Shown here: one piece after another, positions 3,751 to 29,961 of the stretch | Numbering within the stretch: the stretch's first letter is position 1 | Layout of the letters: the number at the start of each line of letters is the position of its first letter | Assembly: GCA_016187725.1 (NCBI GenBank) | Contig: JACPJE010000068.1 | Span: 1,049 to 65,048, forward strand | Length of the DNA stretch: 64,000 nt | Direction of reading: 5' to 3' | Source of the DNA: Candidatus Latescibacterota bacterium | GTDB lineage: Bacteria > Latescibacterota > UBA2968 > UBA8231 | Translations under genes and position numbers: made by a program | Notes under the pieces: model-generated | Told to the model about the DNA's origin: nothing | Databases searched by the model: none | Seen by the model: only the letters and a program-made list of their open reading frames with translations

Positions 3751-4554
3751 CTACCGGAACCCCAGCTCTTTGAGCGGGCGCAGCATCGACTGGCGGCGCG
3801 GGCCACCGCCGGCCAGGAAGGCCGGATCGTAGACCCTGTCGGCGGGGCCGAAAGGGTTTTTGGTCCGCATCCATTCGAGCACGGACTCGTGGTTGCGCCT
3901 GAGTTCGTCGAAGTGCACTTCCTCGGTGGGCCGGGTGGAGAAGTTGAGGGTGCACATCCGCCGGTGGCGGCTGCCGCCGTAGGAGGCGTGCCAGAGACGC
4001 TGGTTGAAGACGACCATGTCGCCAGGCTCTGATACCAACGGGTAGGAGGGCATCTGGTCGCCCGCCAGGCCAAAGGGATAGACCGGCGGCCTTTGGACGC
4101 GGTGGAAGAGTTCAAAAACGGAGGTCCACAAGGGCTCGCGGTGGGAGCCGGGGATCACGCGCAAACAGCCGGAATCCTCCCGGACCGGATCGAGGTAGAA
4201 GGCGACCTTGACCAGTTGGTGGCCGGGCAGGACGACGTGGCGGTCGGGGTGCCACTCGGTGTTGCCGACGTAGTAGTTGGCATCGGAGGGCCAGTACACG
4301 AAACCCGGCCCCAGCAGCTCTTCGAGCACCCCGTAGACCCGGTCGTCCTCCAGCAGGGCCAGCAGCGCCGGCCGCCGCTCGACATACTGGAGCACCATCT
4401 GGCGCTCGACGCCCTCGTGCGGTGCGCCGTGGCGGGCCTCGCGCATCAGCTCGTCGAACTGGCGGCTGATCTGGGCCATCTCGGCGGGGGTGAAGTGCTG
4501 GCGAAAAACCAGAAATCCGAAGGTGTCGAAGAAGTTGTGATGGTCGGGAGACAT
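3751..4554 (-). CDS. Phytanoyl-CoA dioxygenase (PhyH) family Fe(II)/2OG oxygenase
   Basis: 'FFDTFGFLV', WHPD (HxD), 'GCLRVIPGSH', 'PGDMVVF...LWHAS'. Confidence 0.85.
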   Translation of the reverse strand: MSPDHHNFFDTFGFLVFRQHFTPAEMAQISRQFDELMREARHGAPHEGVERQMVLQYVERRPALLALLEDDRVYGVLEELLGPGFVYWPSDANYYVGNTEWHPDRHVVLPGHQLVKVAFYLDPVREDSGCLRVIPGSHREPLWTSVFELFHRVQRPPVYPFGLAGDQMPSYPLVSEPGDMVVFNQRLWHASYGGSRHRRMCTLNFSTRPTEEVHFDELRRNHESVLEWMRTKNPFGPADRVYDPAFLAGGGPRRQSMLRPLKELGFR

Positions 4555-4558
4555 AGGC

Positions 4559-5191
4559 TCACTTTCCTCGCCGCTGGCGAAGGTACCCCACCACCATCGG
4601 CAGCAGCGAGATGCCGATGATGGCGAAGATCACCAGGCTGAAGTTTTTCTTGACCACGGGCAGGTTGCCGAAGAAGAAGCCGGCGTACACCAGGCCCGGC
4701 ACCCATAACAGCGCGCCGACCACGTTGAAGGAGAAGAAGCGGCGGTAACCCATGTCGCCGATGCCGGCCACAAAGGGGGCGAAGGTGCGGATGATGGGCA
4801 CAAAGCGGGCGATGATGATCGTCTTGCCGCCGTGTTTCTCGTAGAAGGCGTGGGTGCGGTGCAGGTGCTCGGGGTTGAAGAACCAGGACTTCTGCCTGGT
4901 GAAGACCTTGGGGCCCACGTAGTGGCCTATCCAGTAATTGGCCGCGTCCCCCAGCACCGCGGCCAGCACCAGCAGGCCAATGATCCACTGGGGGTTGAGC
5001 GCCCCGGTGGAGGCGATGGCCCCGGTGGCGAAGAGCAGCGAGTCGCCGGGCAGGAAAGGCGTCACCACCAGCCCGGTCTCGGCAAAGACCACCAGAAAGA
5101 GGATGAGATAGACCCAGGGACCATAGGCGCTGACCAACTCGTACAGGTGGACGTCGAGGTGCAGGAACAAATCGATCAGTTGCGCGATCAC
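4559..5191 (-). CDS. dedA: DedA family membrane protein
   Basis: '[22 protein letters not shown]', '[16 protein letters not shown]'. Confidence 0.92.
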
Positions 5192-5228
5192 ATGTCATCT
5201 CCTGTCGAAAAAGACCAGCGGTTCGATA

Positions 5229-5467
5229 GTGCGGCGGGGAGATGACCCTGGAGGCCTTTCCCGGGGAGTGGCCGGGGTGGGAAGTCCGCGTGGCAGGGCG
5301 GCGGGGTAGCGGAGCCAGAGCGAGCGAGGGGACGCAACACCATATAAATGGTGTTGCGGGGGCCGGGCCGTAGGGACGTCCCGTTCGGGCGACGCCACAC
5401 CCCATACGTTGGGGTGCAGCGGGACGCGCCTTGGGAAAAGTCGAAGTGGGTCGCTCCCCGACGACAC
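5229..5467 (+). repeat. Structured intergenic repeat, copy 1 (carries an internal ~90 bp hairpin-rich insert)
   Basis: Homologous to 15908-16054; terminal segments are complementary to each other. Confidence 0.8.
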
Positions 5468-5468
5468 T

Positions 5469-6551
5469 TCACCTTTCTGGGGCGAAGCGCTGCAGATCGA
5501 AGGGGGGCCGGCCCGTCGCTATCCAGTCGGCCAGCAGCTGGCCGGTGAGGGGTCCCAGCAGGACGCCGTTCTTGTAGTGGCCGGCAGCGACAAAAACCCT
5601 GGGCTGGGCCTGGAGAGGCCCCAGGTGGGGCCGGCCGCCCTTGGGCTTGGGCCGCAGCCCGGCGCGCTGCCCCAAAAGGCGGGCCGGCAGGTCCAGCACC
5701 TGGCTGAACAGGTGGATAAAATGCTCGGCGGCCTGGGGGGTGGTCTGGGTATCGAAGCCGGTCTCCTCCACTGTGGCCCCGGCGAGGATCTCCTCCCCGG
5801 CAGGCACCAGGTGGATGCCCTGGTGGCGCAGCACATGGCGCAGCTCGGTTCCCCCGGTGAAGCGGCAGTGCTGGCCGCGCACCGGCCGCACCGGCAGGCT
5901 CAGGCCCTGGTGCTGGGCCAGTTCGCCGGTCCAGGCGCCAATGGCCAGCACCAGGAAATCGGCGCGGTGCTCGCCGGCGCGGGTGCGCACCCGGACACCC
6001 TGGCCTTGCTGGGCGAATTCCTCGACCCCTTCGCCCAGGCTGAGGCGGGCCCCCTGCTCTTGGGCCGCCTGCAAAAGGGCACGGGAAAGGAGTTCGGGAT
6101 CCACGCGCTGGTCGGTGGGAAAGTAGACCCCGGCCAGGACCCGGGCGGAGAGGCTGCGCTCCAATTGGCGCAGGTCTTCCCCTTCCACCCACTCGGCCGG
6201 ACAACCGCGCTCCAGGTTGAAGGCCAAAAGCTGGCGGGCCTCGGCGATTTCGGTCTCGCTACAGGCCAGGTCCACCCCTCCCAAGGGACGCCAGCCCACG
6301 TCGATGCCGGTCTGGTCGCGCAGGCGGGCGGCTAGTTCGGCGTGCAGGGCGTGGCCCTGGCGGTAGAGTTGGGAATAGGGATCGTCCCCCCCGTTGAAAT
6401 GGGTGAGCACCCCCAGGGAGGCACAGGTGGTGGGAGAGGGAAAGGGGCCGGGGTCGAGGATTTGGACACTGAAGCCGCGCCCGCTCAGGTAGTAGGCCGT
6501 TGACAGGCCGACCACCCCGGCGCCGGCGACCAGCACCTGCGGGGCGGCCAT
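5469..6551 (-). CDS. FAD-dependent oxidoreductase, glycine oxidase/D-amino-acid oxidase family
   Basis: GAGVVG Rossmann motif, 'PVRPVRGQ', 'AGLRP', 'AGHYKNGVLLGP'. Confidence 0.85.
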   Translation of the reverse strand: MAAPQVLVAGAGVVGLSTAYYLSGRGFSVQILDPGPFPSPTTCASLGVLTHFNGGDDPYSQLYRQGHALHAELAARLRDQTGIDVGWRPLGGVDLACSETEIAEARQLLAFNLERGCPAEWVEGEDLRQLERSLSARVLAGVYFPTDQRVDPELLSRALLQAAQEQGARLSLGEGVEEFAQQGQGVRVRTRAGEHRADFLVLAIGAWTGELAQHQGLSLPVRPVRGQHCRFTGGTELRHVLRHQGIHLVPAGEEILAGATVEETGFDTQTTPQAAEHFIHLFSQVLDLPARLLGQRAGLRPKPKGGRPHLGPLQAQPRVFVAAGHYKNGVLLGPLTGQLLADWIATGRPPFDLQRFAPER

Positions 6552-6555
6552 GGCC

Positions 6556-7734
6556 TCAGCGGCCCACGATGGGCGGCAGGTGGGTCACCGGACAGGCGCG
6601 GGGGGCCTTGACCGAATAGCCCATGTCGCCCAGCACGCAGCTGATCTGGGCTTCGAGTTTGAGCAGGTACTGCTGCTCCTCGGCGCTCATCAACTGGCGG
6701 GGCGGGCCCACCTCGAAGCCGCGCACCGCCACCCCGGTCTTGAACCCTTCCGGGAAGTTGACGCCCAGAAGCATGAGGTTGATCAGGTCGAGGATGCGGT
6801 ATTGCAGGATGCGGGCCTGTTCCACCTGGCCGGCCAGGGCCTTGTTGTAGATCTCCACGATCACCTCGGGGATGATCCCGGAGGTGGCGATGGTGCCGCC
6901 GCTGGCCCCCATCATCACCGAGGGAAAGAGGATCTCCTCGCAACCCACCAGCACCACGTAATCGGGCCGCTGCGCCCGCAGCCGGTGCATGGTGTTGATC
7001 AGCCGGGGCAGGTCGCGGCTGGAGTCCTTGGTGCCCATGATGTGCTCGTAAGGCAATAACCTTTCCATCAGGTCCAGGGGCAATTCCTGGGTGAACTGGG
7101 GGATATTGTAGAGCAGGATGTCCAGGGGCGACTGGCGGGCGATCTCGGCGAAGTACTCGAAGAGGCTGGTGTTCGACATCTTGTAGTAATAGGGCGGCAC
7201 CAGGGAGATGGCGTCCACCCCGATGGAGGCGTAGAACTCGGCCATCTGCAGCACGTCGCGCAGGTTGGCCTCGCTGGCCCCGGCCAGGATGGGCACCCGG
7301 CCTTTGTTCACCTGGCAGATGAGCTTGACCACGTCCTGGCGCTCCTGCCAGGAGAGGCGCACGAACTCCCCGGTGCTGCCGTTGGGATAGAGCCCGTGGA
7401 TGCCGGCCTGGATCAGCCATTCGATGTAGCGCTCCATCTCCGGGTAGTTGATCTGGTCCTTTTCGTTGAGGATGACGATGTTGGGGCAGAGGATGCCCTT
7501 GAATTCCCGCTTGCCCGAGGTGGACGCCTTCCGGGGTGGCAGCACGGATGCCGGGGCCGGGGCGATGGCCGTCTCGGAGGCGGCGCGGCGCTGCACCTCT
7601 ACCCCGTGGGCGCGCAGGTAGTCGAGGGCCGAGGGGGTGAGTTTGGAGTGGGGGCAGAGTTCGAGGGCCTTGTCGTTGCCCAGCCGGGCTTCCAGCACCT
7701 GGGCGGTGATCACGGGATCGTCTAGGCGGACCAT
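6556..7734 (-). CDS. DHDPS/NAL-family class I aldolase with ~70 aa N-terminal extension
   Basis: GSTGEF, 'VPPYY', 'LLYNIPQFT', Schiff-base Lys in 'GTKDSS'; N-terminal module plus Pro/Ala linker. Confidence 0.85.
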   Translation of the reverse strand: MVRLDDPVITAQVLEARLGNDKALELCPHSKLTPSALDYLRAHGVEVQRRAASETAIAPAPASVLPPRKASTSGKREFKGILCPNIVILNEKDQINYPEMERYIEWLIQAGIHGLYPNGSTGEFVRLSWQERQDVVKLICQVNKGRVPILAGASEANLRDVLQMAEFYASIGVDAISLVPPYYYKMSNTSLFEYFAEIARQSPLDILLYNIPQFTQELPLDLMERLLPYEHIMGTKDSSRDLPRLINTMHRLRAQRPDYVVLVGCEEILFPSVMMGASGGTIATSGIIPEVIVEIYNKALAGQVEQARILQYRILDLINLMLLGVNFPEGFKTGVAVRGFEVGPPRQLMSAEEQQYLLKLEAQISCVLGDMGYSVKAPRACPVTHLPPIVGR

Positions 7735-7746
7735 CTGCTATCCTCT

Positions 7747-8889
7747 TCAGTGAACCAGGCGTTCCGTCAGTTGGGTGTAGGGATGGGGAATCAGGTGGAT
7801 GGCCACCAGCTCGCCGTATTTGGCCGCTTCCACGGCCCCGGCATCGAGGGCGGCCTGTACCGCGGCCACGTCCCCGCGGATGGCGCTGGCGGTCAGAAAG
7901 TAGCCCACCTTGTAGCTGCCTTCGTATTCGACATTGGCGGCCTTGAGCATCAGGTCCATGGCCTTGGCCAGGGCGATGCTGCTGCGGGTCTCGATCAGGC
8001 CCAGGGCCCGGCCAGCGCTGGGGCGTTCCACGCTTGGGCCAGGGGCGGCGAAGCAGGCCATCACTTCGGGGGCGGGGCGCGAGACCAGCCGGGCGGCATT
8101 GAGTTCGCCCACCTGGCGGGCGGCGGCAGTGCCGGCGTCCACCGCGGCCTGCACGTCGTCGATATTGCCTTTGAAGAGCAGGGCCACCCGGCCACCGGTG
8201 CCGATATTGATGCGGCTGATCTCCACCTCGCCGGATTTGACCGCGGCGTCGCCGGCCCCCACCATGGCCACGTACCCGGTGGTCTCTATCACGCCCAGGG
8301 CCCCGCTGGACCGGGCCTCGCCCGCCGGGGGCGGGGGCAACATCCGGCCCAGGCCAGATGCCGGCTGGGGGATGAGCAGGGTGGCGATGACGTCTCCGCA
8401 CTGGGCAGCGGCCAGGCGGCCCGCCTCCAGAGCGGTCTGCACCGCGGCCACGTCGCCGCGCGCGATCACGTGCACCAGGGCCCCGCCGATGGCGGCCCAG
8501 CCCTCGATGCTGACGGCCGCGGCCTTGGCCATGGCGTCGGCCCCCCCGATCAGCGGGGTCAGGCCCCGGGTCTCCAACAGCCCCAGGGCCTGGTTTCCCA
8601 CCGGGCGGTCCTGGGAGCCAGTGCGGTGGGGCATGCCCTCCAGGCCCTCGGGCCGGGCGATCACCTCGGCGCTGATCAATTCCCCGTACTTGGCGGCTTC
8701 TTCCTGGCCGGCGCGCAGGGCGGCCTCCACGGCCGCCACCTCCCCTTCGACCAGGACCGTGACCCAGGCCGAGCCCACCCCGTGCCGGCCGCAGATCTCG
8801 ACCTGGGCGGCCTTGACCATCACGTCGGCGGCCCCCACCAGGGCGGCCATGCCGCGCGTTTCGAGAATGCCGAGGGCTGGGGAACTCAT
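7747..8889 (-). CDS. BMC shell protein with four tandem BMC domains (380 aa)
   Basis: ALG(I/L/V)(L/I)ET repeats at aa 5, 101, 197 and 295, each with a DxxxK edge motif and a G(D/E/N)(V/I)xxV motif; AGGA RBS before the ATG at 8889. Confidence 0.9.
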   Translation of the reverse strand: MSSPALGILETRGMAALVGAADVMVKAAQVEICGRHGVGSAWVTVLVEGEVAAVEAALRAGQEEAAKYGELISAEVIARPEGLEGMPHRTGSQDRPVGNQALGLLETRGLTPLIGGADAMAKAAAVSIEGWAAIGGALVHVIARGDVAAVQTALEAGRLAAAQCGDVIATLLIPQPASGLGRMLPPPPAGEARSSGALGVIETTGYVAMVGAGDAAVKSGEVEISRINIGTGGRVALLFKGNIDDVQAAVDAGTAAARQVGELNAARLVSRPAPEVMACFAAPGPSVERPSAGRALGLIETRSSIALAKAMDLMLKAANVEYEGSYKVGYFLTASAIRGDVAAVQAALDAGAVEAAKYGELVAIHLIPHPYTQLTERLVH

Positions 8890-8897
8890 CTGGGGTC

Positions 8898-9452
8898 CTA
8901 GCGCCGGCCAAATGCCTGCAGCACCTGCGGCACCGGCTGGGCGATAAAGGCGGAACCTAGAAACTTGGACGAAGCGGCGGCCAGTTCGCGGCCCACGGCC
9001 AGGGCCTCCTTGACCGCGCCCACCTCCCCTATGATCAGGGAGCAGACCACCCGGTTGTGGACGGTGAGCACGTTGGCCACCTCCACTTGGGCGGCCTTGA
9101 CCATGCGGTCGTCGGCCAGCACCTGCAGGCCGTAGCCCTGGGTTTCGAGCAGGCCCAGGGCGCCGGAAACGGGTGCTATCTCCTTTTTGACAGGGACGGT
9201 GACGTAGTTGAAGCAGGCGGGTTCGGGCTGGTTGAGGGCGGCGGCACTCACCTTCTTGGATACCTGCCGGGCAGCTTCCTCGCCGCTGCGCAGGGCCGCG
9301 GCCACGGCGCTGATCGAACCAATAAAAAAAACCGTGGTGAACCCACCGATGGAATCCCAGCCCAGCAACTCCACCTCGGCGCTCTTGCAGGCCGCATCCG
9401 CCGCGACGACGATGCCCGCCACCCCTTCGACCTCGACCATGCCGATGGCCAT
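8898..9452 (-). CDS. Divergent two-domain BMC shell protein (BMC-T-like)
   Basis: 'AIGMVEVEG..AADAACKSA' and 'ALGLLETQG..DDRMVKAAQV'. Confidence 0.85.
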   Translation of the reverse strand: MAIGMVEVEGVAGIVVAADAACKSAEVELLGWDSIGGFTTVFFIGSISAVAAALRSGEEAARQVSKKVSAAALNQPEPACFNYVTVPVKKEIAPVSGALGLLETQGYGLQVLADDRMVKAAQVEVANVLTVHNRVVCSLIIGEVGAVKEALAVGRELAAASSKFLGSAFIAQPVPQVLQAFGRR

Positions 9453-9464
9453 GGACGCCCCCGT

Positions 9465-9929
9465 TCAGCGCGGTCCCAGGCGGCTCATCACCTGGGCGGC
9501 GATCTGGCGCACCAACTCCTCGCTCACCCCGGGCAGGACCGCCGCGCTCTTGTGGCGGTTGCAGCCCTGGCAGGCCGGGCCGCACCCGCCCTGGGCCTGG
9601 TGGATGGCGCACTGGCCGCAGGAGGCCGGCTCGACAAAGCCAGATCCGAACTCCTCGGTCTGGCAGCCGCAGGCCCGGTCGGGGTGGTCGCAGCGGCCCT
9701 CCTGCACCAGACTGGAGGGGGTGAGTTCGGGGATGAGGCCGGGAGAGGGCGCTGGTGCGGCTGGCGCGGGCCCGCGTATCACCTTGAGGCGGTGCTGGCG
9801 GATATAGTCCCAGCCCGTGGGGGTGATCACCGATCCGGGGAGCAGGCGCAACTCCTCCTGGCCCTGGTGCTGCTGGCGCAGCAGGGCCTCGGTGATGATC
9901 GGGGCGTCGAGATGGCAGGCCCTGGACAT
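9465..9929 (-). CDS. BMC-associated Cys-rich protein with putative C-terminal encapsulation peptide
   Basis: N-terminal 'IITEALLR...VITPTGWDYIRQH' module, 8-Cys segment, amphipathic 'VSEELVRQIAAQVMSRL'. Confidence 0.7.
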   Translation of the reverse strand: MSRACHLDAPIITEALLRQQHQGQEELRLLPGSVITPTGWDYIRQHRLKVIRGPAPAAPAPSPGLIPELTPSSLVQEGRCDHPDRACGCQTEEFGSGFVEPASCGQCAIHQAQGGCGPACQGCNRHKSAAVLPGVSEELVRQIAAQVMSRLGPR

Positions 9930-9938
9930 GGCGCTGGC

Positions 9939-10202
9939 TCAGTTCAGCTTTTCCCTGAGCACCTCTACCGGGCGGGGGATCACGTGCACGCTGCGCAGTT
10001 CGCCCACCTTCTGGGCGGCCTGGGCCCCGGCGTCCACTGCGGCCTTGACCGCGGCCACGTCGCCTTCGACCATCACCGCCACCAGGCCTGCGCCCACCCG
10101 CTTCTGGCCGGCAAAGCTCACGTCAGCGGTCTTGAGCATGGCGTCGAGGGCCTCCACCACGCAGACCAGGCCTTTGGTTTCGACAATACCCAGTGCTTTC
10201 AT
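9939..10202 (-). CDS. BMC-H shell protein (PduA/EutM-like)
   Basis: 'ALGIVETKG...DAMLK...[13 protein letters not shown]...HVIPRP'. Confidence 0.95.
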
Positions 10203-10217
10203 CAGTTGTCAGTCTCC

Positions 10218-10781
10218 TCAACTCAGGAAGAGGTCGATGGTTTCGTCGCTGGGACGGGGGATGAGGTGGCGCGACACCAGCTCGCCCACCCGTTCGGCGG
10301 ATTCGGCCCCGGCGCTGACCGCGGCGCTCACCGAGCCCACGTCGCCGGTGACCAGCACGGTGATGTAGCCGCCGCCGATCTCGCGGATCTTCACCACCTC
10401 GACGCTGGCCGCCTTGCTCATGGCGTCGCTGGCTTCGATCACCCCGGTGGCGCCCCGGGTCTCGATCATGCCCAGGGCCCGCACACCCTTGGGGGCCTCG
10501 CCCCGGGCAGCGCGCGAGGGCAGGATGGCGCCCAATTCGCCGTGCGGGCGGGGGATCACGTGCACGCTGTGCACCTTGCCCACCTTGGCCGCGGCCTGGG
10601 CCCCGGCGTCCACCGCGGCCTTGACCGCGGCCACGTCCCCCTGGCAGAAGACGGTGACCAGGCCGGCGCCCACCTTGTCCCAGCCCAGCAGGGAGACACT
10701 GGCCGCCTTGCTCATGGCGTCGCCGGCTTCGATCAGGCCAGCCAGCCCCACCGTCTCTACCATTCCTAATGCTTCTGCCAT
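10218..10781 (-). CDS. Tandem BMC shell protein (two canonical BMC-H-like domains)
   Basis: Two 'ALGM(V/I)ET...DAMSKAASV...GDV...H(V/L)IPRP' units. Confidence 0.93.
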
Positions 10782-10819
10782 ATTTGTCCTCCTGAAACCT
10801 TAGTGTTGAAGGAGTTGCG

Positions 10820-11482
10820 CTATTTTTCCAGATACACCTTGCGGGCGCGGACCAGGTCCACGGCGTTGCCTTCGTCCGTGTCCAGGTGCACCTCCAGTTT
10901 TTCCTTGCCGCTGACCCGGCAGATCAGCCCCTCCAGTGAGCCTCCCTGCTCGCTTTCGACCACCAGCCGCATCCGGTCGCCGGCTTTGACGCCGTAGTAC
11001 TGGGCTTCGGCGGGGCTCATGTGCACGTGGCGGGCGGCGCGGATCACCCCACAGCGCAGTTCCAGGCCGCCGGAAGGCCCCACCAGGTAGCAGCCGGGAG
11101 TGTCGCGGTGGTCGCCGCTGAGGCGCACCGGCGCGTCTATGCCCAGGAAGCGGGCGTCGGTGAAGGCCAGCTCCACCTGGCAGTACTCGCGCAGGGGGCC
11201 CAGCACCCGCACGTGGGCGATCATCTGCTGGCGCGGACCGAATACCGTGACCGCCTGCTCGGCGGCAAAGGCCCCCTCCTGGTACAGGGGTTTGAGCACC
11301 GTGAGCTGGGCGCCCTTGCCGAAGAGGGTCTCCAGGGCCTCCTGGTTGAGGTGCAGGTGCCTGGCCGAGATGTTGACCACCAGGCGCGGGGCAGCCGGGG
11401 CCGGGGCCACGCCCAACTGGGCCTGGAGGGCCTGGCGCACCAGCGCTTCGATCTGCTGGTGGTCGAGCAATTGGGCGCTCAT
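10820..11482 (-). CDS. pduL: Phosphate propanoyltransferase PduL with N-terminal encapsulation peptide
   Basis: 'ISARHLHL', 'RVLGPLR..QVELA.TD...LGIDAPVRLSG', 'RHVHM', 'HLDTDEGNA'; helix 'QIEALVRQALQ'. Confidence 0.93.
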   Translation of the reverse strand: MSAQLLDHQQIEALVRQALQAQLGVAPAPAAPRLVVNISARHLHLNQEALETLFGKGAQLTVLKPLYQEGAFAAEQAVTVFGPRQQMIAHVRVLGPLREYCQVELAFTDARFLGIDAPVRLSGDHRDTPGCYLVGPSGGLELRCGVIRAARHVHMSPAEAQYYGVKAGDRMRLVVESEQGGSLEGLICRVSGKEKLEVHLDTDEGNAVDLVRARKVYLEK

Positions 11483-11754
11483 CGCGCCTCCCTGTCGAGG
11501 TGTACGTGCTCAGCCCTGGCCAGGATCACCGCGTCCACGGCCAGGGGCGGGTCAAAGGCATTGACGGCCTCGCGGGCCACTTCCACCACCACCAGGTCGC
11601 CCTCGCGCATGGCCTGCCAGGTGGCGCTCACCTCCGGGTCGCCAATGGGCTGCAGGTCTTCGCCGAGATCCTCGATCAGGTGCAGGGCCTTGCCCGTGTA
11701 CGGGGCAATGGCCTTGGAGAGGACCACGGTGCCGATGACCCGCGACAGTTTCAT
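11479..11754 (-). CDS. BMC vertex protein (EutN/CcmL family), divergent
   Basis: 'MKLSRVIGTVVLSK...GDLVVV...VDAVILA'. Confidence 0.8.
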   Translation of the reverse strand: MKLSRVIGTVVLSKAIAPYTGKALHLIEDLGEDLQPIGDPEVSATWQAMREGDLVVVEVAREAVNAFDPPLAVDAVILARAEHVHLDREAR

Positions 11755-11758
11755 CCGC

Positions 11759-12055
11759 TCATCTCACCGGCAAATCGCGGCCAAAGGCCTGCAGGTTGTC
11801 GATGATGCCCACGATCACCGCGTCGGTGGGCACGTCGCCCATCTGCGGGGCGAAACGCGCCGAGCTGCCCATCACCACCAGCACCAGCTCGCCCTCGCCG
11901 GCGCCCACCGCGTCGATGCAGACCAGGTGGCGGCCGGTGGGCTCCAGGCCCTGCTCGCGCACGGTGATGATCTCCACCAGCAGGAGTTTCTTGCCGACCA
12001 GGTTCTGCAGCTTGGCCGTGGCGACCACGTGGCCCTTGACCCGCGACAGTACCAT
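11759..12055 (-). CDS. eutN: BMC vertex protein (EutN/CcmL family)
   Basis: 'VKGHVVATAK..L.GKKLLLV...DAVGAGEGELVLVVMGSSAR...PTDAVIVGIID'. Confidence 0.93.
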   Translation of the reverse strand: MVLSRVKGHVVATAKLQNLVGKKLLLVEIITVREQGLEPTGRHLVCIDAVGAGEGELVLVVMGSSARFAPQMGDVPTDAVIVGIIDNLQAFGRDLPVR

Positions 12056-12071
12056 GCGCCTCTAAAATCCT

Positions 12072-12098
12072 GTAAGGGCGGGTTTGCAACCCGCCCTT
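12072..12098. repeat. REP-like palindrome
   Basis: GT-AAGGGCGGGTT-TGC-AACCCGCCCTT, intergenic, single copy in the window. Confidence 0.5.
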
Positions 12099-12125
12099 GT
12101 CTGTAGTCCGTGTTCTGAGATCATC

Positions 12126-13559
12126 TCAGGTGATGCGGAAATAATCCACCAAACTGCAGCGGCGCTGGCGGGTGAAGGTGCGGGCCGAGGTCAACCCCTC
12201 TCCGGTGGGGCCGGCGATGGAGAAGGTACAGAACCCCTCCCCGCCGATGCCCACCCCGCCGTAGGAAGGCCCGTTCTTGACGAAGATCGTGGTGTCCACG
12301 GCCCTGGCCATGTTGTGCATGTTCTCGATGTTGCGCGAGTGGATGATTGCCGTGTGCCGGTACCCGTGTTCGGACTCGATGGCCAGGCGGATGGCCTGCT
12401 CGACGTTGGGCACCCGGACGATGGGCAGGAAGGGCATCATCTGCTCTTCGTGGACGAAGGCGTGGCTGGCGTCGGTCTCGCCGATGAGCATCAGCACCTG
12501 CTCGTCGAGGTGGATGCCCACCCGCTGGGCCAGCACCGAGGCGTTGCGGCCTACCAGCTCGCGGTTGACCACCAGTTCGCCCTTGGGACTTTTGACAAAG
12601 GCGTGTTTGGCCAACTCCTCGATCTGGGCGGGGGTGAGTTCGTAGCCGCTGTGGCGCACCAGGCGCGCCTTGAGTTCGTCGGCCACCGACTCGATCACAA
12701 AGACCTGCTTCTCGCCGATGCACAGGATGTTGTTGTCGAAAGCAGCCCCGGCGATGATGTCGCGGGCGGCCCGGTCGATGTCCGCGGTCTCGTCCACCAC
12801 CACCGGCGGGTTGCCCGGCCCGGCGACGATGGCCTTCTTGGGACTGGCCATGGCGGCCTTGGCCACCCCAGGGCCCCCGGTCACCAAAAGCACCCGGATG
12901 CCCGGATGGGTGAAGAGCTGCTGGGCGCTTTCGATGGTGGGGGTCTCGATGGCGGTGATCAGATCGGCCGGCCCGCCCACCCGGGTGATGGCTTCGTTGA
13001 GCAGGCGCACCGCCCAGGCCGAGACCTTCTTGGCCGCCGGGTGCACGTTGAAGACCACCGAGTTGCCCGCGGCGATGATGCTGATGGCGTTGTTCACCAG
13101 GGTGGGCACTGGGTGGGTGGAGGGAGTCACCGCGCCGATCACCCCGTAGGGGGCCATCTCCACCACGGTCAGGCCGTGGTCACCGGTCCAGGAGATGGCC
13201 TCCAGGTCCTCGACGCCCGGGGTCAGGTCAGCGGCGGCGTAGTGCTTGCGGATCTTGTGGTCCACCCGCCCCATGCCGGTCTCCTCCACGGTCATGCGGG
13301 AGGATTCCTCGGCCTTGCTGCGGATGGCCTGGCGGATGGCCTCGATGATCTTGCGGCGCTCCTCCAGGGTGCCCCCCACCAGGGCCCGCTGGGCGGCGGC
13401 GGCGGCGGCCACGGCCTCGTCCACGGTCTGGAAGACCCCGCCCGCCCCGCTCCTGCCCTCGCTGAAGCTGAGGGTGTTGCCGGCCACCACCCGGCCCACC
13501 ACCTCCTGGACGATGCGGCGGATCTGCTCTTCGCTGACGTTGTGTGCCACCCCGTTCAC
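12126..13559 (-). CDS. eutE: CoA-acylating aldehyde dehydrogenase (EutE/PduP family) with encapsulation peptide
   Basis: 'PYGVIGAVTPSTHP', 'TGGPGV', 'GPGNPPVVVDETAD', 'FDNNILCIGEK', 'GPTGEGLTSARTFTRQRRC'; N-terminal 'SEEQIRRIVQEVV'. Confidence 0.93.
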   Translation of the reverse strand: MNGVAHNVSEEQIRRIVQEVVGRVVAGNTLSFSEGRSGAGGVFQTVDEAVAAAAAAQRALVGGTLEERRKIIEAIRQAIRSKAEESSRMTVEETGMGRVDHKIRKHYAAADLTPGVEDLEAISWTGDHGLTVVEMAPYGVIGAVTPSTHPVPTLVNNAISIIAAGNSVVFNVHPAAKKVSAWAVRLLNEAITRVGGPADLITAIETPTIESAQQLFTHPGIRVLLVTGGPGVAKAAMASPKKAIVAGPGNPPVVVDETADIDRAARDIIAGAAFDNNILCIGEKQVFVIESVADELKARLVRHSGYELTPAQIEELAKHAFVKSPKGELVVNRELVGRNASVLAQRVGIHLDEQVLMLIGETDASHAFVHEEQMMPFLPIVRVPNVEQAIRLAIESEHGYRHTAIIHSRNIENMHNMARAVDTTIFVKNGPSYGGVGIGGEGFCTFSIAGPTGEGLTSARTFTRQRRCSLVDYFRIT

Positions 13560-13679
13560 CTCGTGTTAGGCCTCGCGCCGGATTGGTGTACCAACTTGCC
13601 TGCTCTGGCGAGACGCTAAGGCCGGTCTGAATTGCGATTTCTTCACTCGCGGGCCCAATGGGCGCTATTTCTTTGGGCG

Positions 13680-13958
13680 CTATTTCTTATTGATGGGAAG
13701 GATGCTTTCGAGACTGGGGTGCGGCCGGGGGATGACGTGGACCGCCAGCACCTCCCCCACCCGGCGGGCAGCGACCTGGCCGGCCTCGGTGGCGGTCCGC
13801 ACCGAGGCCACGTCGCCGCGCACCAGCGCGGTGACCAGGCCCCCGCCGATCTGCTGCCAGCCCACCACCGCCACGTCGGCGGCCTTGACCATGGCGTCCA
13901 TGGCCTCGATGAGAGCCACCAGCCCGCGGGTTTCGATCATGCCCAGTGCGTCGCCCAT
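13680..13958 (-). CDS. BMC-H shell protein
   Basis: '[29 protein letters not shown]...HVIPRPH', the C-terminal part of the listed 344 aa ORF; ATG at 13958. Confidence 0.93.
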
Positions 13959-14090
13959 GCTGCCCTGTTTTTGATTTGAGAAAATAGGGGGGGGTACAGG
14001 CAAAGTCAAGACGCCCTCCCGCCTTGACATCCCTTGGCGCCGCACCCTATTTTCGCCTGCACTTTGACCCCGACACTGAGGAGAATAGCG

Positions 14091-14894
14091 ATGCGCATCA
14101 TCCGCTTTATCGACGAGCAGGGCCAGACCCGCCTGGGCGAGGAAAGCGGCCCGGGCCAGGCCGCGGTGCTCAAGGGGGATTTGTTCGGCAGACTGGAGCG
14201 CAGCGGCCAGAGCGCCGCAGTCAAAAAGCTGCTGGCCCCGGTGACCCCTCCCAATATCCTGTGCATCGGCCTGAACTACCGCGAGCACGCCGCCGAGTCG
14301 GGGGCCAAGATCCCCGATTACCCGGTGCTCTTCATGAAGCCCAACACCGCCCTCAACAACCCCGGGGACCCCATCCGCCTGCCGGCCTGCCAGGTCGATG
14401 CGGAGGTGGATTACGAGTGCGAATTGGCCGTGGTCATCGGCAGGACCTGCCGCGACGTGCCCGAAGCCAAGGCCCTGGAGTACGTGCTGGGCTACACCGC
14501 GGCCAATGACGTGTCGGCGCGCACCTGGCAGATCAAGCGGGGCGGCGGCCAGTTCGTGCGCGGCAAGGGCTTCGACACCTTCTGCCCCCTGGGGCCGGCC
14601 CTGGTCACCGCCGACGAGATCCCCGATCCCCAGGCCCTGCGGCTCAAGACCCTCCTCAACGGCAAGGTGATGCAGGACCACACCACCGCGGACATGATCT
14701 TCCCGGTGGCGCACCTGGTCAGCTTCCTCAGCCAGGACACCACCCTGCAGCCGGGCACGGTGATCCTCACCGGCACCCCCCAGGGCGTGGGCTTCGCCCG
14801 CAAGCCCCCCGTCTGGCTGCAGCCCGGCGACGAGGTGGTCATCGAGGTGGAGAAGATAGGAAGGTTGGTGAACCTGGTGGGGGCTAGTCGATAA
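14091..14894 (+). CDS. Fumarylacetoacetate hydrolase (FAH) family protein
   Basis: '[10 protein letters not shown]', '[11 protein letters not shown]', 'NDVSAR', '[12 protein letters not shown]', 'TGTPQGVG'; GAGGAG RBS. Confidence 0.92.
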
Positions 14895-15138
14895 TCCCCA
14901 CGATCACGCTGCGCACCGCCGGGGCCTTGACCCCGGTCACTTGGCCCCCGGCGATGCCCGACTCGCTGACCACCACCTGGCTGCCGATGCCGGCGCCCAC
15001 CCCGTCGATGGCCAGCTGCATGGGCACCGTGGGATCATTCACACCCTCCAGGCCGGAGACCACCAGGATCTTCCGGCCTTCGAGGATGGGGTGCTTGACC
15101 GTGGTCACCACATGCCCGATGACCTTGCACATTCTCAT
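14884..15138 (-). CDS. BMC vertex protein (EutN/CcmL family)
   Basis: '[23 protein letters not shown]...[13 protein letters not shown]...IVGIID'. Confidence 0.88.
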
Positions 15139-15170: not shown

Positions 15171-15905
15171 ATGACTGCCGCTGAACTGGATGCCCGGCTC
15201 GACCAACTGGAAAAGGATGGTTTTCTGCTCATCCCCCAGGCCCTTTCCCCCGCCGAGACCAAAGAGGTTCGCCAGCGGGTGAACCGCGCCCGGGAACAGG
15301 GCTGGCAGGAAGGGCTCAACGAGGTGGGCAATATGTGGTTCGACCGCCTGCTGGTGCAGGACCCCGAGACCTTCCGCCCCCTGGTCGCCCATCCCGGCGT
15401 CCGCCCTTACCTGGACGCCCTGCTGGGGCCCCAACTCCAGCTGCGCAGCTTCCGCGCCCACATCAATCCCGGCCCCTATCTGCAAGAGTGGCACATGGAT
15501 TTTTACGGGTATTGGCAGCAGCCCAAACGGCGCTTCAGCGTGCGCGGAGTGGCGGTCAACACCACCTTCTATCTACAAGATAACGGCCCCAAAGACGGGC
15601 ACCTGAAATTCGTCAAGGGCGGCCACTTGTCCGAGCCGCCGGGCCTGGACCGGTCCAAGTTCCACGGGTACCACAGCAACGAGTTCAGGGACTGGTGCGA
15701 AGCCCAGGAGCACGTGGTGGTGCACCCCATGGCCGGGGACTGCGTGCTCTTCTTCAGCCACATCCCCCACCAGGGGGCCAAGCTGCGCGAGGACATGGAG
15801 CGCAGCAACGTGGTCTGCCACTTTCAGGGCAACCCCTTCTACGAGGGCATCTGGTTCGTGTCGCGCCCCATCGGGTACGAGGGGACCTTCCCGCTGGCCA
15901 GCTGA
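15171..15905 (+). CDS. PhyH family Fe(II)/2OG oxygenase
   Basis: 'LEKDGFLLIPQALS', WHMD, 'AGDCVLFFSHIPHQG'. Confidence 0.82.
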   Translation: MTAAELDARLDQLEKDGFLLIPQALSPAETKEVRQRVNRAREQGWQEGLNEVGNMWFDRLLVQDPETFRPLVAHPGVRPYLDALLGPQLQLRSFRAHINPGPYLQEWHMDFYGYWQQPKRRFSVRGVAVNTTFYLQDNGPKDGHLKFVKGGHLSEPPGLDRSKFHGYHSNEFRDWCEAQEHVVVHPMAGDCVLFFSHIPHQGAKLREDMERSNVVCHFQGNPFYEGIWFVSRPIGYEGTFPLAS

Positions 15906-16054: not shown

Positions 16055-16067
16055 ACCGATGTACTTC

Positions 16068-17321
16068 TCACTCCACCAGACTCAACTGCTCCAACCCAGC
16101 CCTGATCTCGCCCTCCCCATATCCGTAAAATCCCGCCAGTTTCTCCACCACCTGGTTCATCAGCACGTCCGGGCAGGAGGCGCCAGAGGTCACGGCGATG
16201 CGCGAGGGCAGCTTTTCGGGCAGCCAGTCCTCGCTGAAGACGCGCTCCTTGCGGTGGATGTCGAAGTGGGCCAGCCTTTGGAAGGAGAGCAATTCGCCGC
16301 TGTTCTCGATGAGGTAGCTGGGCATCTGCTGGGAGCAGATCTCCACCAGGTGGGAGGTGTTGGAGCTGTTGTATCCCCCCACGATCAGCGCCAGATCCGG
16401 CCGGGCCTCCAAGAGGGCTTTGGTGGCGTTCTGATTCCAGTTGGTGGCGTAGCAGAGGGTGTCGTTGGTGTCGGCGAAGTGGTGTTCGAGCCGCTCCTCG
16501 CCGTAGCGCTGGCGCATGGCCTGGTGCAGGATGCCGGCCACCTCCTGGGTCTCCTCGGCCAGCATGGTGGTCTGATTGACCACCGCCACCCGCTCCAGGT
16601 CCCGGCGCGGGTCGAAGCCGGCCGACCACTTCTGGGCGAACTGCGCCGAGAACTCCTCCAGGTTCTGTTCCCCCAGGATGAAAGCGGCCAGGGCCAGGGC
16701 CTCTTCCCGGTCGCGCACCACCAGGGTGCGGGTGTGCTGCCGGGTGTGGGAGTGGGTGGCCTGGGTCTCCTCGTGGCCGAACTTGCCGTGGATGATGATG
16801 GTGTAGCCCTCCCGCCCCAGCTGCTCGCCCCGGTCCCAGACCTTGGAGACAAAGGGACAGGTGGTGTCGTAGTGCTCGCGGAAGTGGGCGGCGCGGGTGT
16901 CGATGCCGCTGCGCTGGAGGGACTCCTCGATTTCCAGGGTGGTGCCAAAGGCCGGGATCAGCACCACATCCTCTCCCCCCACCTGACCGTCCCCGATCTG
17001 GCGCTGCCCCTCCTCGTCGAAGAGAAAGCGGATGCCCCGCTCCTGCAAGTCGCGGTTGACCAGGGGGTTGTGGATGATCTGGCTGACCAGGTGGATGCGG
17101 CGGTCGGGGTGTTCTTCGAGGGCGGAGAAGGCCATGTGGATGGCCCGCTCCACCCCGAAGCAGAAGCCGAAATGGCGGGGGATGAGGATCTCCAGCCGGC
17201 CGATGGGCAGGCGGGTGGGCGCCAGGGAGCGCTTGCCCTCTTCCAGGCGGAAATCCTTGATGCGCTGGATGAGGGCGCCGGCGTAGTGGTTGGGGACGCG
17301 GTCGAACTGCGTAAAGGCCAT
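16068..17321 (-). CDS. ispH: 4-hydroxy-3-methylbut-2-enyl diphosphate reductase
   Basis: 'FGFCFGVERA', 'IIHNP', 'TTCPFV', 'DTLCYAT', 'GGYNSSNT'. Confidence 0.95.
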   Translation of the reverse strand: MAFTQFDRVPNHYAGALIQRIKDFRLEEGKRSLAPTRLPIGRLEILIPRHFGFCFGVERAIHMAFSALEEHPDRRIHLVSQIIHNPLVNRDLQERGIRFLFDEEGQRQIGDGQVGGEDVVLIPAFGTTLEIEESLQRSGIDTRAAHFREHYDTTCPFVSKVWDRGEQLGREGYTIIIHGKFGHEETQATHSHTRQHTRTLVVRDREEALALAAFILGEQNLEEFSAQFAQKWSAGFDPRRDLERVAVVNQTTMLAEETQEVAGILHQAMRQRYGEERLEHHFADTNDTLCYATNWNQNATKALLEARPDLALIVGGYNSSNTSHLVEICSQQMPSYLIENSGELLSFQRLAHFDIHRKERVFSEDWLPEKLPSRIAVTSGASCPDVLMNQVVEKLAGFYGYGEGEIRAGLEQLSLVE

Positions 17322-17419
17322 GCCACGAATCTAAGGCCACCGGACCCTCTGTCAATGCGCCTGGTTGACGTCTTGGAAGAGTATGCCCATCTTTGCGGGA
17401 CAAGGGTGTCACACAATCT

Positions 17420-19021
<1,602 letters not shown>

Positions 19022-29582: not shown

Positions 29583-29665
29583 CCCCGGTCGCTACTCCCG
29601 CCTTGTCCCCGCCCTCTCCTGGGGCTATTTTTTTGCCCTACAACCCCTGTGCCAGAGAAGGTGAA

Positions 29666-29862
29666 ATGAAGAGGACGGCCATCGGCCTGATCGAACTGTC
29701 CAGCATCGCCGCCGGCTTTGCCGTGGCCGACGTGTTGCTCAAGGCCGCCATGGTGGAACTGCTGATCAACCGCACCATCTGCTCGGGCAAATACCTGATC
29801 CTCATCGGCGGGGAAGTGGCGGCGGTGGAAGCCAGCCTGGCCGCCGGGGTGGGGGTCGGCGG
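29666..29862 (+). pseudogene. Truncated PduT-like BMC shell gene (most of the first domain only)
   Basis: 'AIGLIELSSIAAGFAVADVLLKAA..V...TICSGKYLILIGGEVAAVEASL'; similarity stops abruptly. Confidence 0.8.
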
Positions 29863-29961
29863 CAGTGCTCCTACTGCACCGAACTGTGCCCCCGCTACCT
29901 GTTGGGCTACCAGGTGGAGCCCCACAAGGTGATGCGCGACCTGGGCTTCACCCTCTCGGGG
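29863..29961 (+). pseudogene. Internal fragment of a PduS/RnfC-like Fe-S protein
   Basis: Reads QCSYCTELCPRYLLGYQVEPHKVMRDLGFTLSG, in frame with the downstream TPR ORF. Confidence 0.7.

Follow-up and report, generated by a model that had tools for sequence, protein, structure and literature searches.

The window analyzed here, a stretch of 64,000 nt from a Candidatus Latescibacterota bacterium, carries at positions 5469–15138 a bacterial microcompartment (BMC) locus of the metabolosome kind, in which shell genes stand together with a class I aldolase of the dihydrodipicolinate synthase/N-acetylneuraminate lyase (DHDPS/NAL) family. The source genome (G000) is a draft of 5.56 Mb in 292 contigs and is 89% complete. 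Open reading frames (ORFs) abound in the window because its G+C content is ∼66%; genes were called from family matches, obtained by scans of Pfam and NCBIfam together with reading of the ORFs, and from third-position GC. The locus is real and conserved. It holds three BMC-P, two BMC-H and two BMC-T genes and one gene for a protein with four BMC domains, with both shell folds clustered (nine PF00936 domains in five genes and three PF03319 BMC-P genes). Its enzymes comprise the core pair of a metabolosome, a CoA-acylating aldehyde dehydrogenase (AldDH; NF011927, 665.5 bits) and a PduL-type phosphotransacylase (PF06130, 220.3 bits), together with the aldolase and a ThiO-like flavoprotein. Twelve genes run in one direction on the minus strand, spaced by −4 to 120 nt, from position 13958 (BMC-H) to 5469 (flavoprotein), in the order BMC-H, AldDH, two BMC-P, PduL, BMC-T, BMC-H, Cys-rich protein, BMC-T, four-domain BMC protein, aldolase and flavoprotein. 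The third BMC-P gene lies upstream of this main run, with an opposite-strand FAH-family gene in between, and a promoter-like pair at 14009/14024 (consensus matches only) faces both directions between the FAH and BMC-H genes. An initial annotation of this DNA had the gene inventory and coordinates correct, its list being short of the FAH-family, Cys-rich and four-domain shell genes. The features are as follows.

14884–15138, minus strand: BMC-P vertex protein 1, 84 aa (PF03319, 68.4 bits)
14091–14894, plus strand: FAH-family hydrolase, 267 aa, divergent from the operon (PF01557, 256.6 bits)
13680–13958, minus strand: BMC-H, 92 aa, first gene of the main run (PF00936, 96 bits)
12126–13559, minus strand: CoA-acylating AldDH with an N-terminal helix resembling an encapsulation peptide (NF011927, 665.5 bits against a cut-off of 403)
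11759–12055, minus strand: BMC-P vertex protein 2, 98 aa (NCBIfam CcmL, 71.7 bits; EutN, 66.3 bits)
11479–11754, minus strand: BMC-P vertex protein 3, 91 aa (PF03319, 34 bits)
10820–11482, minus strand: PduL-type phosphotransacylase with an N-terminal helix resembling an encapsulation peptide (PF06130, 220.3 bits)
10218–10781, minus strand: BMC-T with two BMC domains, 187 aa (PF00936, two stretches, 174.7 bits)
9939–10202, minus strand: BMC-H, 87 aa (PF00936, 90.1 bits)
9465–9929, minus strand: Cys-rich protein, 154 aa (no Pfam or NCBIfam match)
8898–9452, minus strand: BMC-T, 184 aa, which travels with the aldolase (PF00936, two stretches)
7747–8889, minus strand: 380-aa shell protein of four BMC domains in tandem, its gene adjoining that of the aldolase on the upstream side (PF00936, four stretches, 252.3 bits)
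6556–7734, minus strand: DHDPS/NAL-family class I aldolase, 392 aa (PF00701, 190 bits, residues 78–365)
7570–7734, minus strand: putative docking-type domain at the aldolase N-terminus, residues 1–55 (alignment and AlphaFold model)
5469–6551, minus strand: DAO-family flavoprotein resembling ThiO/glycine oxidase, 360 aa, last gene of the run (PF01266, 219.7 bits)

We propose, with a probability of about 0.55, that this locus encodes one metabolosome in which a core derived from the Planctomycetes/Verrucomicrobia microcompartment (PVM) has been fused with a plug-in class I aldolase module. In the interval 5469–15138, no scanned ORF encodes a diol dehydratase, ethanolamine lyase, glycyl radical enzyme (these three were not searched for genome-wide), alcohol dehydrogenase, class II aldolase or acetate kinase. 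The absence of such enzymes from the locus, noted in the initial annotation, therefore stands for the interval, but a class II aldolase and acetate kinase homologs are encoded elsewhere in G000.

The 380-aa shell protein is not a BMC-T in the two-domain sense, as it has four PF00936 domains, all of them conserved and mutually distinct. Its family numbers 297 clusters at E ≤ 1e-20, of which the 120 listed span 366–393 aa. To our knowledge, although no literature search was aimed at it, a shell protein with four BMC domains has not been described. Three such chains would supply twelve domains and could form two linked pseudohexamers.

Identity and conservation of the aldolase

The aldolase consists of an N-terminal alpha/beta domain of ∼50 aa, a Pro/Ala linker and a TIM-barrel domain. 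In addition to its PF00701 match of 190 bits it has the Schiff-base Lys, the Tyr and the GxxGE motif of the superfamily: in alignments with 4xky and 4uxd, GSTGEF falls on the carboxylate-binding motif, YNIPQFT on the Tyr motif and GTKDSS on the Schiff-base Lys motif, and its orthologs keep GSTGEF, YNIPQF and G(T/I)KDSS. The best solved relatives in a PDB sequence search are 4xky, the 2-keto-3-deoxygluconate (KDG)/2-keto-3-deoxy-6-phosphogluconate aldolase 4uxd and YagE. The DHDPS/NAL 2-keto-3-deoxy sugar-acid aldolases 4uxd and YagE (2v8z/3n2x), which share its fold family, rank second to fourth in that search (E = 2.6e-38 to 3.1e-34), and YNIPQFT is identical in the 4uxd chain; the locus aldolase differs from these enzymes in its extra N-terminal domain and a conserved tail (..CPVT.LPPIV..). 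Human 4-hydroxy-2-oxoglutarate aldolase is also among the PDB matches (E = 7.4e-30).

The protein scores below every NCBIfam equivalog cut-off: 156.7 against 281 and 124.1 against 382 bits for the N-acetylneuraminate lyase models NF003164 and TIGR00683, 116 against 390 bits for an archaeal KDG-aldolase model, and 97.2 (cut-off 278) and 86.5 bits for KdgD models, the weakest of its seven NCBIfam matches. It also matches the DapA model TIGR00674 (E = 4.6e-45), and the initial annotation had recognized that the gene might turn out to be housekeeping DapA. It would then serve lysine/diaminopimelate synthesis and lie beside BMC genes by chance. We consider this extremely improbable, since the TIGR00674 score of 153.7 bits is below the cut-off of 206.15, and G000 has 11 further PF00701 proteins (12 in total), two of which, the better DapA-like copies on contigs C149 and C162, outscore it on the family model. 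Moreover, the motif YNIPQFT has a Phe at the site aligned to the DapA Arg that lies five residues after the catalytic-triad Tyr (Escherichia coli R138) and that we take to bind aspartate semialdehyde. Phylogeny, shell-gene adjacency in all 19 loci compared and absence of the gene from 82 of the 168 genomes of the phylum, presented below, point the same way.

In a tree of 34 rows, which left out L047 (read-through frame), L051 (start not found) and L052 (internal stop), the BMC-linked aldolases form a clade separate from the other PF00701 copies of G000, DapA-like ones included, and from other representatives. Two tiers of orthologs can be told apart: tier 1, with 66–94% identity and the N-terminal extension (node support 100/100), and tier 2, with 47–49% identity and no extension (97/70); both join with one representative at 97/96. 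Within tier 1, aldolases of families f3 and f4 fall inside, not outside, the sequences of f1, the family of the window, which may reflect transfer of the module between families or a misleading root in the tree as drawn.

Across 168 species genomes of the phylum, tier-1 aldolases occur in 80 (75 full-length, five fragments) and tier-2 aldolases in six, while 15 further matches are paralogs of ∼31–35% identity. The window proteins were mapped on 19 loci, one for each of the 14 tier-1 genera and five from tier-2 genomes. The aldolase stands beside a shell gene in every one of them; conservation of this neighborhood, which the initial annotation had made a check of its idea, is borne out. All 14 tier-1 loci have the four-domain BMC protein and BMC-T directly upstream of the aldolase, and all five tier-2 loci have a BMC-T directly downstream. 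The whole operon including the flavoprotein is conserved in f1, with AldDH and PduL in all eight f1 loci not cut by a contig end; in f3 and f4 only the BMC-T, the four-domain BMC protein and the aldolase stand together. BMC-P genes are found in 146 of the 168 genomes and in 84 of the 86 that have the aldolase, the two exceptions being 58% and 78% complete. An in-frame stop codon (TAA, TAG or TGA) lies inside or just before the aldolase match in G032 (L052), G069 (L047), G035 and G036, and may mark either errors of assembly or pseudogenes.

The DHDPS superfamily also includes KdgD, L-KDA-dehydratase and pyrroline-4-hydroxy-2-carboxylate deaminase, and an oxidase paired with a DHDPS-family protein is a signature of bacterial D-hydroxyproline catabolism. 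The locus protein could accordingly be a dehydratase or deaminase of this kind that makes alpha-ketoglutarate semialdehyde, next to a flavoprotein resembling D-hydroxyproline dehydrogenase. The KdgD matches, the likeness of the gene pair to the hydroxyproline signature and the enolase-superfamily dehydratases beside tier-2 and f3 orthologs are consistent with such a role. Nevertheless it appears improbable to us: KdgD models are far under their cut-offs, the nearest solved relatives are aldolases, the Pro_racemase (hydroxyproline epimerase) family was not found in the 89% complete G000, and we know of no precedent for an acylating AldDH and PduL acting on a keto-acid semialdehyde.

Targeting features and the N-terminal domain

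Helices resembling encapsulation peptides (EPs) were judged by eye from sequence. AldDH begins with such a helix (..SEEQIRRIVQEVVGRVV..) followed by a Gly/Ser linker, and PduL with another (..HQQIEALVRQALQAQL..) followed by a Pro/Ala linker. The tier-2 aldolases that were read (L048, L049, L050, L052 and the representative P0123) end in a linker and an amphipathic helix, for example ..EEQIASIVADVVRRV.. and ..AEIQAIVAEVVRQM.., the same pattern as at the C-termini of the class II aldolases of the same genomes, the N-termini of AldDH and PduL and the C-terminus of the Cys-rich protein. To judge from its residues, the tier-2 tail is an EP of classical form.

Tier-1 aldolases have the N-terminal domain. 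Its alignment to the start of the Cys-rich protein is free of gaps (invariant T10, T33, P34 and D38), and a genome-wide search with the Cys-rich protein hit nothing but the N-terminus of the G056 aldolase. Searched with a domain profile, G000 yields exactly two copies, three f3 genomes yield only the aldolase, and two f14 genomes yield weak matches (E ∼1e-5) inside PF02502 RpiB-like proteins. In a large protein collection the profile matches 149 proteins at E ≤ 0.001; among the 120 listed, three are PF00701 fusions and the rest are 114–196 aa long. Pfam searches with the domain and with the Cys-rich protein returned nothing at E ≤ 5. The AlphaFold model is a compact strand-helix-strand-helix-strand unit (mean pLDDT 84). 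Complex predictions of the domain with the four-domain shell protein gave 0.28, 0.35 and 0.04 against a mark of 0.32, which is not evidence either way. The domain is thus common to the aldolase, the EP-bearing Cys-rich protein and, more weakly, RpiB-like BMC proteins, and we infer for it a docking or assembly role. The RpiB-like proteins of the two f14 genomes (L060, 5533–6270, plus strand; L061, 5764–6504, minus strand) have an EP-like helix followed by the segment resembling the domain, which is thereby linked to an RpiB-like family already known from BMC loci.

A more daring extension is that the domain is a new type of microcompartment docking domain, unlike the amphipathic-helix EP, which tethers the aldolase to the four-domain shell protein so that the keto-deoxy acid is cleaved at the shell and the aldehyde alone enters the lumen; the set of aldolase, BMC-T and four-domain protein would then be a portable substrate adaptor for PVM-like organelles. 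We offer this tentatively and would sooner expect it to be wrong than right.

The Cys-rich protein was found only in f1. Besides the aldolase-type N-terminal domain it has conserved clustered Cys residues (..GC.TEEFGSG.VEP.SC..C.. and C.GCNR), and it ends in an EP-like helix whose tail follows the pattern E.LV..IT..V..RL. Its best score in a protein atlas, 0.85, is below a meaningful level, and an EutQ-fragment cluster at 0.78 is merely a lead. The protein may bind a metal or an iron-sulfur cluster in the lumen, or it may act as an adaptor.

Relation to a PVM-like core

In four genomes of sister families, G056 and G043 (f3) and G035 and G033 (f14), an AldDH ortholog of 55–61% identity lies far from the DHDPS-family aldolase. 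It is flanked by BMC-P in all four and by BMC-H in three; a class II aldolase (PF00596) with a C-terminal EP stands beside it in the three loci scanned with Pfam (G056, G035 and G033), acetate kinase in G056 and G035, and PduL in both f3 genomes. Because this PVM-like core lies elsewhere in these genomes, the DHDPS-family aldolase and its shell genes are a satellite there. A homolog of the class II aldolase is present in 145 of the 168 genomes and PF00596 was found in genus g5 by family search; the PVM-like class-II-aldolase organelle is nearly universal in the phylum. Three genomes of one genus (G103, G104 and G105) are without BMC-P and the DHDPS-family aldolase, and their class II aldolase homolog contains an in-frame TGA, as if the gene were decaying now that the organelle has been lost.

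AldDH and PduL are each single copy in G000, which therefore has one core. The sole PF00596 match of this genome, on contig C178 among housekeeping genes (YchF GTPase, TPR-PPIase and thiamine transporter), has an EP-like tail (..EEALIRQIAQQVIDQLK), and the two acetate kinase homologs are on contigs C19 and C18. The locus itself thus contains neither the EP-tailed PF00596 aldolase nor the acetate kinase of the PVM set. Since the core is single copy and these two enzymes are encoded outside, the window locus looks like a fusion of satellite and core. Furthermore, the orthology of the AldDH/BMC-P core to the PVM-like sets of sister families, together with the EP-tailed class II aldolase of G000, indicates that the DHDPS-family aldolase, a conserved BMC-linked enzyme, is probably a second aldehyde source and not the sole one. 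The initial annotation had taken it for the apparent signature enzyme; its link to the BMC is borne out by conservation and targeting features, whereas its claim to be the only candidate gives way before the PVM-like ancestry of the core. The possibility, also raised there, of a described BMC type with its signature enzyme elsewhere has come true in part, given the PVM-like sister cores and the class II aldolase on C178.

Could the DHDPS-family aldolase be cytosolic and merely co-regulated, with the EP-tailed class II aldolase as the sole encapsulated source and the locus a rearranged PVM-type BMC? The presence of that class II enzyme in G000, its homologs across the phylum and the absence of a canonical EP from tier-1 aldolases would fit. 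Against this, tier-2 orthologs bear a canonical C-terminal EP, the aldolase is always accompanied by dedicated shell genes, its N-terminal domain recurs in proteins with EP-like helices (Cys-rich and RpiB-like), and G116, a 94% complete genome, has the aldolase and no PF00596 match. We regard a cytosolic aldolase as improbable, though less so than a DapA.

Under the satellite-core fusion that we favor, the core (BMC-P triplet, BMC-H, acylating AldDH and PduL) would descend from a PVM-like class-II-aldolase organelle, and the fused module would consist of the DHDPS/NAL class I (Schiff-base) pyruvate aldolase with its own BMC-T and four-domain BMC protein. The aldolase would be brought to or into the shell, here by its ∼50-aa N-terminal domain and in distant orthologs by the C-terminal encapsulation helix. 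It is predicted to split a 4-hydroxy-2-oxo acid into pyruvate and an aldehyde, the likeliest substrate being a 2-keto-3-deoxy sugar acid that would yield lactaldehyde or glycolaldehyde. The EP-bearing AldDH would convert the aldehyde to acyl-CoA, PduL would recycle the CoA by forming acyl-phosphate, and ATP could be gained through a cytosolic acetate-kinase homolog whose gene lies elsewhere. The class II aldolase with the EP-like tail, from the other contig, probably feeds the same shell.

In the catalogue of BMC types, which cites Erbilgin et al. (2014), the PVM-type metabolosome is the microcompartment of Planctomycetes and Verrucomicrobia for fucose and rhamnose (Sutter et al. 2021, PMC8217296). 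The window locus has in common with it the acylating AldDH, PduL, the BMC-P triplet and BMC-H, and in the sister genomes an EP-tailed PF00596 aldolase and acetate kinase complete the set. Unlike the PVM, however, the locus has class II aldolase and acetate kinase outside, and it adds the class I DHDPS-family aldolase, two BMC-T, the four-domain BMC protein, the Cys-rich protein and the ThiO-like flavoprotein. A parallel for the module is provided by the satellite EUT modules (EutABC with an EutL-type BMC-T) that, according to the main text of the catalogue, extend HO, SPU3 and SPU6 BMCs and are read as functional extensions (PMC8217296). In both cases an aldehyde-generating enzyme with its own shell protein lies apart from the main locus and would admit an alternative substrate; for the DHDPS-family aldolase and BMC-T (with or without the four-domain protein) this satellite behavior is seen in f3, f4, f13 and f14. 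The module differs from EUT modules in its enzyme family and shell proteins and in being fused into the main locus in f1. Single-cell genomes of Latescibacteria, by record labels a related candidate lineage, contain an SPU-like BMC locus with AldDH, PduL, class II aldolase, PduS and an RpiB-like protein (Axen et al. 2014, PMC4207490). That locus shares AldDH and PduL with the window locus, and its RpiB-like family carries the aldolase-type N-terminal domain in f14 genomes; it differs in its PduS and RpiB-like genes, and its description names no DHDPS-family enzyme. Youssef et al. (2015) assume a fucose/rhamnose BMC in Latescibacteria.

Among the neighboring genes, a LytB/IspH-family gene (16068–17321, minus strand; 417 aa) has a long insertion relative to the 267-position Pfam model. 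The overlapping ORF 16059–17423 (plus strand) was rejected as a gene because it is on the wrong strand by third-position GC. Matches of this antisense frame in other loci are echoes of the conserved LytB gene on the opposite strand; in five further f1 loci they immediately precede the BMC-P triplet in the same orientation, a placement that may be plain synteny. Likewise, ORF 4446–5405 (minus strand) is in the wrong frame by third-position GC, the real gene being VTT/DedA at 4559–5191 (minus strand). PhyH-family dioxygenase genes lie on both sides of the locus: that at 15171–15905 (plus strand) is matched only in the same-genus locus L034, and that at 3751–4554 (minus strand) only by a 24% match in L045. 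Two lone BMC-domain genes were also seen in G000. One, in the window at 29603–29932 (plus strand), follows a sigma-70 gene after 363 nt and overlaps a TPR protein at the latter's start; the other, on contig C83 (L058, 9087–9551, minus strand), encodes 154 aa with a C-terminal extension and is ∼1.2 kb from a GFO/IDH/MocA oxidoreductase gene.

Substrate and significance

There is in our estimation about an even chance that the aldolase acts on a 2-keto-3-deoxy sugar acid and so releases lactaldehyde or glycolaldehyde. Its closest relatives of solved structure cleave KDG and keto-deoxy-xylonate/galactonate. In G035 the tier-2 aldolase is part of a tight operon of rhodanese, GlcE-like, GlcF-like, enolase-superfamily protein, short-chain dehydrogenase/reductase (SDR), aldolase and BMC-T. 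Such tier-2 operons with an enolase-superfamily protein and an SDR lend some support to the keto-deoxy-acid idea of the initial annotation; the tier-2 SDR has no PDB match at E ≤ 1e-35. Lactaldehyde is suggested because the core resembles the class II aldolase BMCs that the catalogue ties to fucose and rhamnose. Neither a RhaA nor a FucI domain was found in G000 (89% complete) or in the single-contig genome G099, a pattern that fits greater reliance on a non-phosphorylative route in f1; RhaA is present in G056, and FucI-like genes are present in G035 and G033. The FAH-family gene, inside the locus in five of the 10 sampled f1 loci, has 2,4-didehydro-3-deoxy-L-rhamnonate hydrolase as its best NCBIfam match (220.8 bits, under the cut-off of 500), and its PDB matches are generic (HpcE, FAHD1 and LRA6 types).

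The flavoprotein suggests a different source of the keto acid. It has the DAO fold over its full length, with glycine oxidases as the best solved relatives (4ysh, E = 1.1e-43), and its best NCBIfam match is ThiO, TIGR02352. Unlike a ThiO glycine oxidase it falls below the cut-off of that model (204.2 against 250.8 bits), its gene closes a BMC operon, and only one family has it there. It would, in this alternative, act on a 4-hydroxy-2-amino acid, or on an amino acid that is N-substituted or of D form, and oxidize it to a 4-hydroxy-2-oxo acid, which the aldolase would cleave to pyruvate and glyoxylate, formaldehyde or acetaldehyde for the BMC. The immediate downstream position of the flavoprotein in all 10 f1 loci (with a 4-nt gap in the window), its glycine oxidase relatives and the human 4-hydroxy-2-oxoglutarate aldolase among the PDB matches of the aldolase are in keeping with this route, as are PhyH dioxygenase and DapF-family genes after the f3 aldolase and the PhyH genes that flank the window locus. 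However, the flavoprotein adjoins the aldolase in none of the nine f3, f4, f13 and f14 loci. Three f3 genomes have merely paralogs of ∼30% identity, far from BMC genes, and two f14 genomes have no homolog at E ≤ 1e-20. The flavoprotein has an EP-like extension at neither end, and the PhyH genes are not orthologous between loci. A second copy in G000, 31% identical, lies at a contig edge. As adjacency and orthologs are confined to f1, the flavoprotein cannot be a general partner of the aldolase clade; it is a family-specific accessory of the f1 version of the locus. The idea, put forward in the initial annotation, that an oxidase feeds the aldolase hence loses its generality and survives as a rather unlikely rival.

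A number of observations weigh against the fused-module organelle and its sugar-acid substrate. Tier-1 aldolases have no canonical EP, their conserved ..CPVT.LPPIV.. tail standing in its place, and P0127, a representative within the BMC-linked clade, has none either. The N-terminal domain, a putative docking unit, has no structural relatives in the PDB: a Foldseek search with the model gave no match at E ≤ 0.001, and the best sequence-profile match has E = 0.18. Absences in G000 are weak evidence because the genome is 89% complete, and the counts across the phylum overstate independence because the genomes are related. As to the substrate, the enolase-superfamily neighbors, a galactonate-dehydratase-like gene 8 kb from an f3 aldolase excepted, reach no NCBIfam equivalog cut-off, and best PDB matches among these neighbors are unassigned structural-genomics entries; the G000 homolog of one of them adjoins two M19 dipeptidases, hinting at a peptide and not a sugar. 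The FAH-family gene matches HpcE, FAHD1 and a rhamnonate-pathway hydrolase about equally. Finally, the genes after the f3 aldolase (metallohydrolase, PhyH dioxygenase, Zn-dependent alcohol dehydrogenase and DapF-family) and the amino-acid-oxidase-like flavoprotein beside the f1 aldolase speak of amino-acid chemistry.

Many catalogued metabolosomes have no known aldehyde source; the main text of the catalogue counts ACI, FRAG1-7, HO, MIC2-7 and MUF2-3 among the metabolosomes for which no signature enzyme is obvious, gives no gene content for MUF2, and is silent on pfam00701 and pfam01266 (PMC8217296). In the literature searched, the name MUF2 occurs only in the catalogue and its preprint. The locus is probably already catalogued as a type of unknown function. 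Literature searches, with supplements outside their reach, found nothing joining DHDPS-family enzymes with microcompartments, and a search on 2-keto-3-deoxy compounds and on lactaldehyde with aldolase found nothing concerning such a locus. What is new here is the proposed history of module fusion, the shared N-terminal domain and the co-inherited four-domain shell protein.

The analysis names a candidate aldehyde source, a clade of class I pyruvate aldolases that have targeting features and are always accompanied by their own shell proteins, and suggests how the locus type may have come about, namely when a satellite module merged with a PVM-like core. If true, this fusion would link non-phosphorylative sugar-acid (or hydroxy-amino-acid) catabolism to BMCs, and the parts list for microcompartment engineering would gain a class I aldolase, a folded docking domain and a four-domain shell protein.

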